This document shows, piece after piece, positions 2,618 to 10,977 of a stretch of 64,000 nucleotides of DNA. Source of the stretch: Promethearchaeati archaeon (GTDB lineage Archaea; Asgardarchaeota; Heimdallarchaeia; Heimdallarchaeales; Heimdallarchaeaceae); assembly GCA_013166775.1 (NCBI GenBank), contig JABLTJ010000009.1, positions 35,931 through 99,930 on the forward strand. Direction: 5' to 3'. The notes beneath the pieces are model-generated. The model did no database searches. It saw nothing but the letters and a program-made list of their open reading frames with translations, and was not told where the DNA came from. Made by a program: the position numbers and the translations under genes. Each line of letters starts with the position of its first letter. Position 1 is the first letter of the stretch.

Positions 2618-3592
2618 CTACATTGAGGTTAAGAATTTTTCCACTATTTCATCAACATTGATTTTGTTGATTTTACAGTATTTTTCTGAGATTATAGGTG
2701 GATGATTTCCTTGGTGGACTTTTCCTCCAAAAAATATTTTCCCAAAATAGATTGGATTTATGAGGATTTTTTCAATCTTAGCAACATCAGATTTAGTCTT
2801 TTCAGCTATTTCAGCTAGACTCTTCTCCTGCAGGTAGAGTAAAGAGAACATTAGTTTGACTTTCATAGCTTCGTCGTCTTTAATCTCTAATTTACCCTTT
2901 ACCAGATTATATCCGTAAGGAATGGCATCACCTGATACATCTAATGTTACTGTTAACAAACCACCATCTTTTGCAACATCTTCATGTAACTCGGGGGGAT
3001 CTTCAACTTTGACAATTTCTGGTTCAGGTACTGGTTCAGGCTCCTCTTCGTCTTCTTCGGCTTCTTCAATTTCCTCTTCGACTTCTTCGGCTTCGTCGAT
3101 TTCCTCTTCGTCGGCTTCGTCGTCTTCGGCTTCGTCGATTTCCTCTTCGTCGGCTTCGTCGTCTTCGTCTTCGTCGGCTTCGTCGTCTTCATCTTCTACG
3201 ACTTCTTCTACGACCTCATCAATTACTTCTTCTGAAACAGGTTCTTCTAAAACTTCGTCGACTGCTTCTTCAACAACCTCTTCGATATAATCTTCGACAA
3301 CATCTTCAATGACTTCTTCTTCAGTTTCTTCTTCCTCAATCTCTTCTTCGGCTTTTTCGGCTTCTTCCTCTTCCTCTATTTCTTCATCTTCAGTTACTTC
3401 TTCCTCAATCTCTTCTTCAACTTCTTCTTCAACTTCTTCTTCCATTTTTAATTCAATTCCTTCATCAATTTTATCTTCATTTTCTTCTTTTTTAAACTTC
3501 AGAGCAGTATCTTTAGTCAAATCAGCAATTTGATCATCAAGTTTTTCTTGCAGTTTTTCCTTAAGTTTTGATTTGATTTCATCTTCTTCCAA
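2618..3592 (-). CDS. Extremely acidic protein with a C-terminal large-serine-recombinase 'Recombinase' DNA-binding domain; no catalytic resolvase domain
   Basis: 'PYGYNLVKGKLEIKDDEAMKVKLMFSLLY..KSLAEIA...IEKILINPIYFGK...GNHPPIISE' matches the LSR recombinase-domain pattern. The N-terminal ~200 aa are E/D-rich. TTG start with GGAG upstream. Confidence 0.75.
   Translation of the reverse strand: MEEDEIKSKLKEKLQEKLDDQIADLTKDTALKFKKEENEDKIDEGIELKMEEEVEEEVEEEIEEEVTEDEEIEEEEEAEKAEEEIEEEETEEEVIEDVVEDYIEEVVEEAVDEVLEEPVSEEVIDEVVEEVVEDEDDEADEDEDDEADEEEIDEAEDDEADEEEIDEAEEVEEEIEEAEEDEEEPEPVPEPEIVKVEDPPELHEDVAKDGGLLTVTLDVSGDAIPYGYNLVKGKLEIKDDEAMKVKLMFSLLYLQEKSLAEIAEKTKSDVAKIEKILINPIYFGKIFFGGKVHQGNHPPIISEKYCKINKINVDEIVEKFLTSM
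3084..3190. repeat. Intragenic tandem repeats: a 39-bp unit x2 plus shorter related units, encoding DEADEEEIDEAED
   Basis: tcttcggcttcgtcgatttcctcttcgtcggcttcgtcg occurs at 3084-3122 and 3123-3161, followed by partial copies. Confidence 0.85.
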
Positions 3593-3824
3593 TCTGAAAC
3601 ACTCCTAAATTAAGGAAAGCAATTTCATTATTAAATATATATACGAAAGAGGCAAAAAGAGAAAAACAAACAAAAAGAAGTCTACCTATTGAAGAAGGTG
3701 TTTTTGTCGGGATAATAGCTCCTTTACCTATGATGTAACTGATATTTTCCACTCTTTCTTATAATTACCAAATAAGAAGAAACCAAGAGAACAATTATTG
3801 GAAGACTGGAATTTAGAAGAAAAA

Positions 3825-3847
3825 GAATTTCTGCTTGAACAGGAAAG
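3825..3847 (+). repeat. Direct repeat copy A of the terminal arm of the 10643-10907 element (short, degenerate)
   Basis: gaatttctgcttgaacaggaaag vs master ggatttctgcctgaacaggaagg; preceded by an A-tract. Confidence 0.75.
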
Positions 3848-3862
3848 TAATTCAAATAAAAA

Positions 3863-5149
3863 TCACAATTTACTGTAAATAATATCATAATATTCTCTAA
3901 TTATGCAAATTGCTACTAGAACTCCCGTTCCAGTTCCTAAAGGACCTAGAAAATCTGCTATAGATGCTAGAAATCCTATGAAAAAACCTCCTAACCACGC
4001 AGCAGTTGGGATATACTGGTTCAGGTATTTCTGAACAATTTTAGGATCCTCTCTAAAACCAGGAATTAACATATCCTTATTAAGAAATTGTTTAGCAACA
4101 CTCAATGAATCCATTCCAGCAGTAATATACCATATCCGTGAAAAAATACCACAAAATAGTATCATCATTATAATATAGCCTACAACAAGAGAGGGTTTCT
4201 GGACAATTTTCTCAGGACCGTAAGGAGGGAAAAAAATACCAAAGAAGCCTCTCGGAGAAGAACCAGATATTAAAGTAGATATGAAACCTAAAGTAGCAAA
4301 TAATATTGAAGACAAAATTACTGGAACATAAAAAGTATACAAACTTCTTATAGGATAACGAGTGGGAATGTCATCTTTTTTTGATTGAGCAGGAATCTCT
4401 ATTTTTATTGAAATAAAGTAAATAACTATAGCAAAAACGACGAAAAGTAATAGGAAATCTACAAAATCATACGTTTTATATGGATTATAAAAGGGCGTTA
4501 GTAAGTCTCCTCTACCTATTCCTTGAAAGAATGCTAAGATACTTCCTTCATACCACATAAATCCACTTAATGTTTCTTGATGCAAACTTAACATTCCTTT
4601 AAAAATATTGTAACAAACACTGGCAAGTATGAATAGACTAGTTCCGGAACCCAAACCGTAACCCCTCTGGAGTAGTTCATCCATCAAGATTATCACAAAC
4701 CCAGCAGCTAGTAATTGCACAAGGATAATCAATTTACTAATTATTGAGATACCCTCTCCATAAATACCACTGAAAGAGAATACTAAAGCAAAAGCTATAG
4801 TTAATACTATTGCTAGTACTTTAGTACCAATAGCATAGAGCTTTCTATCCTCCTTCTTAGTGAAGTCTACTTTGATTAATCTTAAACCAATTAGAATCTG
4901 AAAAATAACTATAGAGAGAACAATCGGGAGAATACCAAACTCAGCAAGACTACCTAGCCTAGAGGCAGAGATCACTCGGAATAAAGATAGGGGATCATCT
5001 AGATAATATATACTTCCGGGAAATCCAAATAAAGGTATGCTTAAGAGAGCAAAATAAATACAAAGAATCCCAAAAGTCCAAGCTAATTTACTCCTCATTA
5101 TACTTGGTTTTGATTCTTTTGTTTTCGATATTCCAGTTCTCAGATTCAA
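3863..5149 (-). CDS. secY: SecY/Sec61alpha family translocase, divergent stand-alone paralog
   Basis: 'GSLAEFGILPIV', 'MDELLQRGYGLGSGTSLFI', 'IPGFR', 'LGTGTGVLVA', ~10 TM segments; not in a ribosomal protein operon. Confidence 0.88.
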   Translation of the reverse strand: MNLRTGISKTKESKPSIMRSKLAWTFGILCIYFALLSIPLFGFPGSIYYLDDPLSLFRVISASRLGSLAEFGILPIVLSIVIFQILIGLRLIKVDFTKKEDRKLYAIGTKVLAIVLTIAFALVFSFSGIYGEGISIISKLIILVQLLAAGFVIILMDELLQRGYGLGSGTSLFILASVCYNIFKGMLSLHQETLSGFMWYEGSILAFFQGIGRGDLLTPFYNPYKTYDFVDFLLLFVVFAIVIYFISIKIEIPAQSKKDDIPTRYPIRSLYTFYVPVILSSILFATLGFISTLISGSSPRGFFGIFFPPYGPEKIVQKPSLVVGYIIMMILFCGIFSRIWYITAGMDSLSVAKQFLNKDMLIPGFREDPKIVQKYLNQYIPTAAWLGGFFIGFLASIADFLGPLGTGTGVLVAICIIREYYDIIYSKL

Positions 5150-5245
5150 TTATTTCACTAGTCCTAATAGTCAATAATGTATATGAGTTTTCTTTAAAAG
5201 GATTTTCTAACAAACTTTGAATTAAATTCAAGAAGAAAAGAAAAA

Positions 5246-5283
5246 GGATTTCTATTTAAGCAGGAAGGGGATTCTGACTCGAT
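5246..5283 (+). repeat. Direct repeat copy B of the terminal arm
   Basis: ggatttctatttaagcaggaaggggattctgactcgat; the upstream aagaaaaa is also shared with the master. Confidence 0.9.
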
Positions 5284-10120: not shown

Positions 10121-10133
10121 TCCACAGTAGTAT

Positions 10134-10565
10134 TTATTGCTCTAAAATTTGCCTTGCGAGATTGATTATCAGTCGACTTTCGTAATCGTATAGATCATAA
10201 AAATCTAAAGATCTACAAAACCACATCTTTAGATGATTCTTGGGGATAGGATCGAAGGTGAGTAAAAGAAACACTGCTTGGTAAGGGATTAGATGAGTGA
10301 GAGAAGGAAGATTATCTCTTAACTCCCATACATTATTAAATTTGTTCAAAGCTTTCCATTTCTCATCTTTGATGGAATAGAGATTAGCGAGATAAAGGTA
10401 AGGAAGAGCGGTTTCAGGATAATCGTTAATCAAATCCTTGAGAATAGTTACAGCAGGAGAGAGATGACCAGTCTGAATTGAATTAAGGGAAGTGTCAAGT
10501 AGAACTTGGTAAACCTCATCGATAGAGTCTGGTTGTTCCTCAACTATTATCCATGTCCTCAACAT
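10134..10565 (-). CDS. Small TPR-like protein
   Basis: 'AVTILKDLINDYPETALPYLYLANLY...KALNKF' helical-repeat pattern; start uncertain. Confidence 0.55.
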   Translation of the reverse strand: MLRTWIIVEEQPDSIDEVYQVLLDTSLNSIQTGHLSPAVTILKDLINDYPETALPYLYLANLYSIKDEKWKALNKFNNVWELRDNLPSLTHLIPYQAVFLLLTFDPIPKNHLKMWFCRSLDFYDLYDYESRLIINLARQILEQ

Positions 10566-10642
10566 GATTAGTTTCGGTACACTGAAAGCGAAAAAAGTAT
10601 TTAAGCACAAAGAAAAGTTTAGAATAATTCGGATAAGAAAAA

Positions 10643-10907
10643 GGATTTCTGCCTGAACAGGAAGGGGATTCTGACTCGATGCCTCTGGGGTTTTTTCATC
10701 CTTACGGATGATGGTTGGGGGTTCTGGCAGACAGAAGTTGTCTGTAAATCAGACACATCTGATTCTGGGGATTCGGGCTCAGGAGGTCTTAACTAAGCCC
10801 AATGGGGGTTCAAACCATCTAAAAAGGGGTTCAACCATAGTTCCCGAGATTTACCCTTGGGAAGGGTTGAAGCATCGGATTCTCTTCCTGTTCAGTTTGC
10901 AGTTTCC
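10643..10907 (-). ncRNA. Putative novel structured ncRNA (or DNA hairpin element) of unknown family; strand tentative
   Basis: GC-rich island. The ~40-nt termini pair (ctgaacaggaag/cttcctgttcag; cgatgc/gcatcg). At least five internal hairpins, one closing a GUAA GNRA loop on the minus strand. Minus-strand BRE/TATA at ~10961-10977 and a T-tract right after the 3' end. Confidence 0.65.
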
Positions 10908-10960
10908 TCTTAGATAGCCTTTTACTAAATAACCCCAACTATATTATTTTCTCTTTGAAA

Positions 10961-10977
10961 CTATATAAATGTTTTTC
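10961..10977 (-). promoter_or_regulatory. Candidate archaeal BRE-TATA promoter pointing into the structured element
   Basis: Minus strand gaaaaacaTTTATATAg, with no credible protein-coding start nearby downstream. Confidence 0.45.

Follow-up and report, generated by a model that had tools for sequence, protein, structure and literature searches.

A circular non-coding RNA gene and the variable array of gene cassettes behind its 3' end in a Heimdallarchaeia genome

The window analysed here is a stretch of 64,000 nt (contig JABLTJ010000009.1, positions 35,931 to 99,930) from the assembly GCA_013166775.1 of a Heimdallarchaeia archaeon, a genome of 115 contigs, 3.85 Mb and 89% completeness that is referred to as G000. 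Within this window a gene for a 250-nt circular non-coding RNA (ncRNA) is followed by five displaced copies of its own 3' end with genes between them (Table 1), and these genes differ between related genomes. Other G numbers denote genomes of relatives, L numbers loci and C numbers contigs.

The minus strand was identified as the functional strand of the RNA gene from two lines of evidence. The fold of the element was better than that of shuffled sequences, more strongly on the minus strand (z = -6.9) than on the plus strand (z = -3.8), and the RNAs of relatives, read in the minus-strand sense, contain UUCG and GNRA loops and G-U pairs. The gene has a conserved TATA box upstream and a U-tract downstream, and the core of the RNA consists of conserved single strands (C-rich runs, the GACCUCCU motif and two copies of CCAGAACC) set among hairpins that have been freely gained and lost. 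In the genus of G000 the GACCUCCU motif is mostly unpaired. With a covariance model the RNA was matched in 27 of the 30 genomes of the family, with one full copy per genome where the gene was assembled and a single copy in G000; no convincing homologue was found with the model in 52 other genomes of the class or in a 151-genome draw from the phylum, and none was found near eS30 in 28 genomes. Neither the region nor the exact circles from six genomes matched Rfam, and a literature search returned no publication on the RNA. The RNA belongs to no described family and represents a new RNA family. At one locus (L147, G009:C152:~6600-6657) the RNA gene ends after about 45 nt and is followed by unrelated DNA, representing either a 5' fragment or a misassembly.

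The element gives rise to a circular RNA. Both strands at the RNA ends have the geometry of a 4-bp helix with a 3-nt bulge, which predicts a circle of 250 nt (10647-10896). The terminal helices were 99% paired across five genera (slid controls, 30-40%), and compensatory changes were present in 10 of the 20 pairs. The bulge-helix-bulge (BHB) is perfect in G041 and G042 and relaxed on its outer side in the genus of G000. Joints were read from assembled contigs, from which strand and abundance are not derivable, using metatranscriptomes from three studies (X8, X17 and X20) and a DNA run (X2) for comparison. One contig in each of the three metatranscriptomes carried a back-joint from 10895 to 10646 (+/-3 within an A-run) that encloses 250 nt and falls at the predicted bulges, the X8 contig of 280 nt consisting of the 250 nt plus a further 30 nt. 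Given that this joint was absent from the DNA run, the three contigs are direct evidence for a circular RNA. In our reading the gene is of a housekeeping type; its precursor would be transcribed from the minus strand and the terminal BHB of that precursor would be cut by the tRNA splicing endonuclease, after which the cut ends would be ligated, presumably by RtcB, into the 250-nt ring that was observed. Two subunits of the endonuclease EndA are encoded in G000, and the two-subunit EndA is the type that cleaves relaxed motifs. The permuted 5S gene of G000 is likewise flanked by a BHB. In Heimdallarchaeia at large, the 5S rRNA gene is likewise found in a circularly permuted form whose ends make up a perfect BHB (L079-L105; in G000 L099, G000:C54:89190-89367, minus strand), and in only 4 of 83 genomes of the class does it pass the Rfam cut-off; 5S genes were reported as not predictable in PMC8813620.

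The terminal arm of the element is present in six co-oriented copies (3817-3853, 5238-5274, 6287-6323, 8154-8190, 9002-9038 and 10635-10671, the last being the element's own) with start-to-start spacings of 1421, 1049, 1867, 848 and 1633 nt and BLAST E-values from 1e-14 to 2e-4, and no further copy was found by BLAST among the 115 contigs. All copies share a common outer end beside an A-tract, which on the minus strand is a U-tract terminator. Since the RNA is encoded on the minus strand, the repeated arm corresponds to its 3' end and terminator. The array is not an assembly artefact, since it recurs, with six copies, within a 701-kb contig of G001 and is also seen in two contigs from metagenomes (L056 and L059); in addition, nearly the whole region in G000 is spanned by contigs assembled from another DNA sample, which belongs to the same study as the probable source.

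Four of the five units contain a single gene and the proximal one contains two, in mixed orientations, and a hydrophobic segment is present in 5 of the 6 cargo proteins. No near-identical copy of any cargo gene was found elsewhere in G000. The F11 gene of unit 2 is a cassette of about 750 bp that is found in many arrays and at other anchors, whereas the solute-binding-protein paralogue of unit 4 is probably decaying. The unit with the second SecY is also present in G006 and G019, and the second SecY is intact in three sister genomes. The first-pass annotation of the window, made from the letters alone, had described five displaced copies of the arm in addition to the element's own, with a shared outer end by the A-tract and ragged inner ends, as the displaced end of an unrecognised ncRNA gene, and had proposed a variable insertion hotspot with mostly one gene per unit and mostly envelope proteins as cargo. 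All of these points were borne out, while the strand of the RNA had to be corrected to minus, one cargo gene was identified as a second SecY, and the circularity of the RNA is an addition to that description. None of the three refuting conditions that the annotation named applied: gene content varies among relatives, the arm is not spread over the genome, and the repeats do not stem from the assembly.

Table 1. Features of the RNA gene, the array and their neighbours (positions in the window; inner ends of the displaced copies are counted relative to the 20-nt core of the arm)
Feature	Position	Strand	Remarks
PAC2-family gene	11094..11813	-	constant upstream neighbour in the genus
TFIIB recognition element (BRE)/TATA promoter of the RNA gene	10962..10977	-	from sequence; position conserved in 18 genomes, TATA columns (near-)invariant
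BHB/bulge-helix-loop (BHL), 5' strand: outer helix, 4-bp helix CUGC, 3-nt bulge AAA	10896..10909	-	covariation
Mature 250-nt circular ncRNA	10647..10896	-	RNA back-joint, Rfam negative, covariance model
GACCUCCU motif, conserved family-wide	10781..10788	-	resembles the anti-Shine-Dalgarno end of the host 16S rRNA
BHB 3' strand (GCAG, bulge AAA), outer helix and U-tract terminator	10637..10652	-
Unit 1 cargo: 158-aa TPR-like protein	10134..10610	-	carries its own tail variant
Unit 1 cargo: 276-aa multi-pass membrane protein, C-terminal zinc ribbon	9290..10120	+
Displaced 3' end and terminator, copy 1	9004..9036	-	inner end -4
Unit 2 cargo: 225-aa membrane-anchored surface protein, F11 family	8222..8899	-
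Displaced 3' end and terminator, copy 2	8156..8213	-	inner end -20, weaker likeness to -29
Unit 3 cargo: 517-aa protein, probably secreted	6547..8100	+	weak M12 metallopeptidase match, E 0.02, below cut-off
Displaced 3' end and terminator, copy 3	6288..6329	-	inner end -12/-14
Unit 4 cargo: 225-aa internally deleted paralogue of a solute-binding protein (family 5)	5382..6059	+
Displaced 3' end and terminator, copy 4, worn	5236..5283	-	inner end -15
Unit 5 cargo: second SecY/Sec61alpha	3863..5149	-	PF00344, 1e-50; 51% to the copy on C1
Displaced 3' end and terminator, copy 5, worn	3817..3853	-	inner end -6
Acidic protein with a lone PF07508 DNA-binding domain, without resolvase domain	2618..3592	-

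The cargo genes were not covered by RNA contigs and the DNA depth dips at unit 3 (19, as against 25-30), neither of which proves anything. Low-depth contigs of the DNA run X2 skip positions 2528-3613 of the window (the recombinase-domain gene) and 5594-6267 (part of unit 4), and these contigs are possibly strain variants. A methyltransferase gene just distal to the array (window 1247-2083) is broken by one in-frame stop.

When the same site was compared among relatives, its gene content was found to differ. The site was empty in G007, G008, G041, G043 and G045; eS30/Elp3 comes next after the RNA in each of the three other genera mapped, and in G007 and G008 conserved genes take that place. The empty site is the ancestral state. 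Within the genus, from none to six tail copies were observed at the site, with different cargo in G001 (6 copies), G005, G013, G016, G017, G019 and G021, and every tail copy had kept the 3' end and terminator as the variant of its own lineage. Units of the genus arrays range from 350 to 8733 bp (median 1.2 kb). A hydrophobic segment was found in 35 of 45 cargo proteins, compared to 34% genome-wide, with the reservation that the families of cargo proteins are not independent of one another, and 25 cargo genes were in forward and 20 in reverse orientation. Two of the cassettes in G006 (L036:4167-4517 and L036:3126-4037) encode a tandem SH3 protein and a ComEC-like metallo-beta-lactamase domain.

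The distal units, among them the one with the second SecY, were common to the sister genomes and the proximal ones differed, which indicates that the array grew mostly beside the RNA gene. The TPR unit is proximal in G000 and lies distally, behind an arm, in G006, and the tail variant in front of it is the same in both genomes and unlike the neighbouring well-preserved copies. An incoming unit thus appears to bring its tail. F11 units aligned end to end across genomes, and those inspected carry their own promoter. The inner ends of the tail copies extend from about -110 (a 150-nt fragment in G022) via -40 and -14 to -21 to -4 and +14, and contigs of G003, G006 and G022 end inside the RNA.

The same anatomy was observed at other anchors. 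Elsewhere, F11 genes also lie between direct repeats of 20-35 bp, namely at the 3' end of fhs (formate-tetrahydrofolate ligase), at the promoters of tRNA-Cys and tRNA-Asn and at a tRNA-like end. The fhs 3' end is an insertion hotspot (L228 on G000:C87, L272 in G019, L273 in G006) that is empty in G019, contains one F11 unit in G000 and has displaced ends of 126 and 203 nt in G006. At the promoters of tRNA-Cys and tRNA-Asn the repeats around the F11 genes are 21-30 bp long, and the same group of loci (L233, L249, L225-L227 and L262) includes a gene of 158 aa that is flanked by two tRNA 3' ends, as well as 3' fragments of tRNA-Cys lying some 1.1 kb downstream. A scan of the intergenic regions of G000 (score of at least 40) yielded 46 direct-repeat pairs versus 1 inverted pair; the pairs are not independent, many lying within a few arrays, and the direct ones are mostly not paralogue duplications. 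There were no arrays at the annotated tRNA, signal recognition particle (SRP), RNase P and 5S genes of G000, and the wider scan returned a repeat pair at a tRNA 3' end. Any conserved gene end could serve as an anchor in this way, the RNA gene being the busiest one found in G000.

The pairs returned by the scan include two further sets of repeats. A gene for a 189-aa PLD-domain protein is associated with an array of displaced 3' ends of 38-144 nt (L265 and L269; C11, C90, C92 and C109), and this region is present in several versions in the bin. About 20 ragged copies of the 23S rRNA 3' end and trailer, mostly with single genes between them (L263, L264, L268, L270 and L271), were found on the G000 contigs C8, C12, C40, C57, C69, C88 and C89, which may come from another archaeon, given that their 23S sequences are only 77-79% like that of G000 itself. 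The genome's own 23S rRNA is expanded to about 3380 nt (L069, G000:C52:4985-8366) and lies divergent from the 16S gene at a distance of 3.4 kb.

The model that best fits these observations, to which we assign a probability of roughly 0.45, is additive insertion at conserved gene ends by single crossover, anchored by homology and free of any integrase. A piece of DNA from a relative would have its start at a variable point within the RNA gene's conserved 3' part, from where it would extend across the terminator and one or two genes, and it would be added, either as a circle or by one-ended invasion, through one crossover in the shared stretch. We infer that general recombination (RadA) would perform this crossover, whatever the route by which the DNA enters. 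The newcomer would supply a new tail and terminator and the old tail would be displaced behind the cargo, so that the outer end would stay fixed while the inner end became ragged. Units could subsequently be lost or moved by crossover between tails. The single-crossover model is favoured since it covers the fixed outer end, the ragged inner end, the tail brought by the donor, the use of many unrelated conserved anchors and the missing integrase.

Several points weigh against this model. Stretches of 20-40 bp are short for RadA-type recombination, DprA (uptake route) was not found in 31 genomes, and an excised DNA circle was not seen in one DNA run in which repeat joints were skipped and rare forms dropped. 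Tyrosine integrases are sporadically present in 15 of 31 relatives, and metagenome-assembled genomes often lose mobile elements. The fresh copies cluster at -14 to -21 (9/15), which is narrower than expected of random breakpoints in a 250-nt anchor, so that the model needs one of three extra causes: common descent of the ends of the cassettes, the purging of repeats that are long, or the breaking of assemblies at such repeats. Neither does it explain how a gene first arrives behind a new anchor. Because the first arrival and the clustering are unexplained, two rival explanations stay in play, one based on an integrase and the other on duplication of the target.

According to the first, which we consider doubtful, transient elements with a tyrosine integrase insert at the RNA gene's 3' end in the way that others do at tRNA and tmRNA genes, and the units are relics or cis-mobilised islets, the integrase being supplied in trans. 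This would agree with the clustered inner ends, the movement of the tail with the incoming unit, the breaking of several contigs within the array and the sporadic integrases of the family. The anatomy is also the Islander signature of an intact gene with a 3' fragment in the same orientation downstream (PMC4383910), and in Prochlorococcus the elements are far rarer than the islands they build (10.1101/2020.12.28.424599). The searches for such elements argue against it: there was no match to the tyrosine integrase domain (PF00589) in G000, neither an integrase nor a viral gene was present among 57 cargo proteins, and there was no integrase-carrying element at the site in 24 genomes of the genus, which are incomplete. 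The arm was absent near every integrase locus fetched from relatives and from IMG/VR, where one chance match lay inside a phage coding sequence. The units are moreover small (median as above), and fhs, the PLD gene, the tRNA promoters and the 23S tails would each need a separate integrase. As a separate observation, no conserved XerA-type tyrosine recombinase was found in the family, including the complete genome G045.

The proposal of the first-pass annotation that the RNA is served by a dedicated site-specific system is therefore not supported, no integrase having been found in G000 or among the cargo proteins and F11 cassettes being present at unrelated anchors as well. Nor is the hotspot, which it called integron-like, an integron: G000 has no match to IntI (PF00589), the repeats contain no attC hairpin and the cassettes are not co-oriented. 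The recombinase-domain protein that it placed beyond the distal repeat does carry PF07508, behind an acidic tract, and lacks the catalytic resolvase domain. A paralogue is encoded on C75, and the protein is missing at the locus in G004, G007 and G017, the last of which still has an arm copy; it is probably old cargo and not the enzyme. An imperfect dyad around TT in the core was considered as a serine-recombinase site and rejected, being at chance level by estimate and lost in G045.

The second rival, which we judge unlikely, is a target-site duplication in which gene-sized DNA fills a break whose two cuts are staggered, one lying at the terminator and the other at a variable position upstream, both copies of the tail then being derived from the host. 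The break could be made by a long-duplication transposase, such as those of the IS1634/IS1549 or IS1182 type, or arise in repair at a transcription-termination R-loop. Such a process would explain the fixed terminator end and the ragged inner ends, the first arrival at new anchors, the perfect repeats of 20-30 bp in the poorly conserved promoter DNA of tRNA-Cys, and the presence of the lineage's own variants in the copies. On the other hand, the units have no shared termini or inverted repeats, no PF01609 DDE transposase was found in G000 (other transposase families were not searched), and a pure host duplication would not be expected to yield a tail variant moving together with the TPR unit. 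That the repeats are generic terminators or repetitive extragenic palindromic (REP)-like elements, tandem gene duplications or assembly artefacts is largely refuted and very improbable, since, even though each copy includes a terminator and F11 paralogues recur in G001, the arm is found only at this locus and includes RNA-internal sequence unrelated to termination, adjacent cargo genes are unrelated, and the anatomy is repeated with other genes in assemblies made independently.

As regards the RNA itself, our best guess, a tentative one, is that it is a stable regulator of translation initiation that exposes C-rich strands together with an anti-Shine-Dalgarno loop. The GACCUCCU motif is similar to the host 16S rRNA at the 3' end of the latter, and Shine-Dalgarno-like words are enriched ahead of start codons (GGAGG, 69 vs 9). 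It seems improbable that the RNA is a permuted and highly diverged second copy of a known RNA (SRP RNA, RNase P RNA or a piece of rRNA) or an rRNA/tRNA guide. This lineage does permute and circularise its 5S gene, and repeated UUGAACCCC motifs in the RNA are complementary to tRNA T-arms and to one site in 23S rRNA. Against a known RNA, SRP RNA, RNase P RNA and the seemingly missing 5S were all located elsewhere in the genome, as were 16S and 23S, and for this reason the first three were rejected as identities; the doubled circle aligned to these RNAs no better than shuffled sequences, except for a borderline 16S score in G000 that was not repeated in G041 or G044, so that 16S homology was rejected as well. 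A role as rRNA guide was likewise discarded, as the many matches of 7-11 nt included none distinguishable from noise and no conserved rRNA pairing rose above it, and neither C/D nor H/ACA boxes were seen. The ARAGORN tRNA list for G000 has no entry at the element, and the junction hairpin fitted poorly, by eye, to a tRNA anticodon arm or SRP helix 8. Translation of a rolling-circle reading frame was also dismissed, given that the longest frame on the RNA strand is 63 aa and that the RNA varies in length between genomes by amounts not divisible by three. A bolder combination of these ideas, which we put forward as speculative and improbable, is an enzyme-driven Asgard capture system that inserts genes behind the terminators of conserved genes and duplicates a variable tail, and whose busiest site in G000 is a new circular housekeeping RNA controlling translation through its anti-Shine-Dalgarno loop.

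Of the prokaryotes known, Heimdallarchaeia count among those most closely related to eukaryotes. An RNA that is present throughout one of their families, arises solely as a ring through the tRNA-splicing route and has no known counterpart constitutes a new RNA family, and the ring junction can be assayed directly by reverse transcription PCR, also in enrichments of Heimdallarchaeum, where the RNA appears to be present. The array shows how surface proteins and paralogues, a second SecY for example, are acquired and exchanged in these archaea, for which the search returned no conserved tyrosine recombinase. The order of insertion and the lineage of the donor are recorded in the tails, so that gene flow can be traced through them, and all such islands would be overlooked by tools that rely on an integrase together with a tRNA fragment.

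Among known systems, the RNA is most readily compared to the permuted circular SRP RNA of Thermoproteus (PMC4731332), which likewise has its own gene, a terminal BHB and a ligated ring; archaeal tRNA introns and pre-rRNA circles are BHB-ligated rings too. Unlike the Thermoproteus RNA, the one described here is not an SRP RNA, has no Rfam family or known linear counterpart, and has been found only in one family of Heimdallarchaeia. For the array, integrons and clusters of attC sites lacking integron-integrases (CALINs), including archaeal ones (PMC9668308), share the stacking of mostly one-gene units and apparent reshuffling. They differ in that no IntI is present here, the orientation is mixed, the F11 units inspected have their own promoter, and the repeat, in contrast to attC, is one strand of an RNA stem with a U-tract and of variable length (HattCI and IntegronFinder were not run). 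The array also differs from large serine recombinase elements, as the adjacent protein has PF07508 only and no catalytic resolvase domain. The Islander islands at tRNA and tmRNA genes are closer, having an intact RNA gene, 3' fragments in the same direction downstream and foreign genes in between; they were collected with a size floor of 2 kb and, across 2168 genomes, stood in arrays of at least three in only 4 cases (PMC4383910), whereas most units here are below 2 kb and five to six stand in tandem. The anchor here is also neither tRNA nor tmRNA, the units are without an integrase, and protein-coding ends serve as anchors as well. The tycheposon islands of Prochlorococcus (10.1101/2020.12.28.424599) and the cassettes of Ca. 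Actinomarinales (PMC7771536) share the addition of small cassettes at an RNA end, the partial-gene repeats left behind, the outward displacement of older material and the cell-surface cargo; in contrast to them, the anchor here is a circular ncRNA, the cargo consists mostly of paralogues of native genes, and an integrase-carrying element was not found. With its conserved position, strain-variable content, growth beside the anchor and partial-gene repeats, the array resembles the additive islands at tRNA and tmRNA ends and differs from them in its target and with respect to the integrase.

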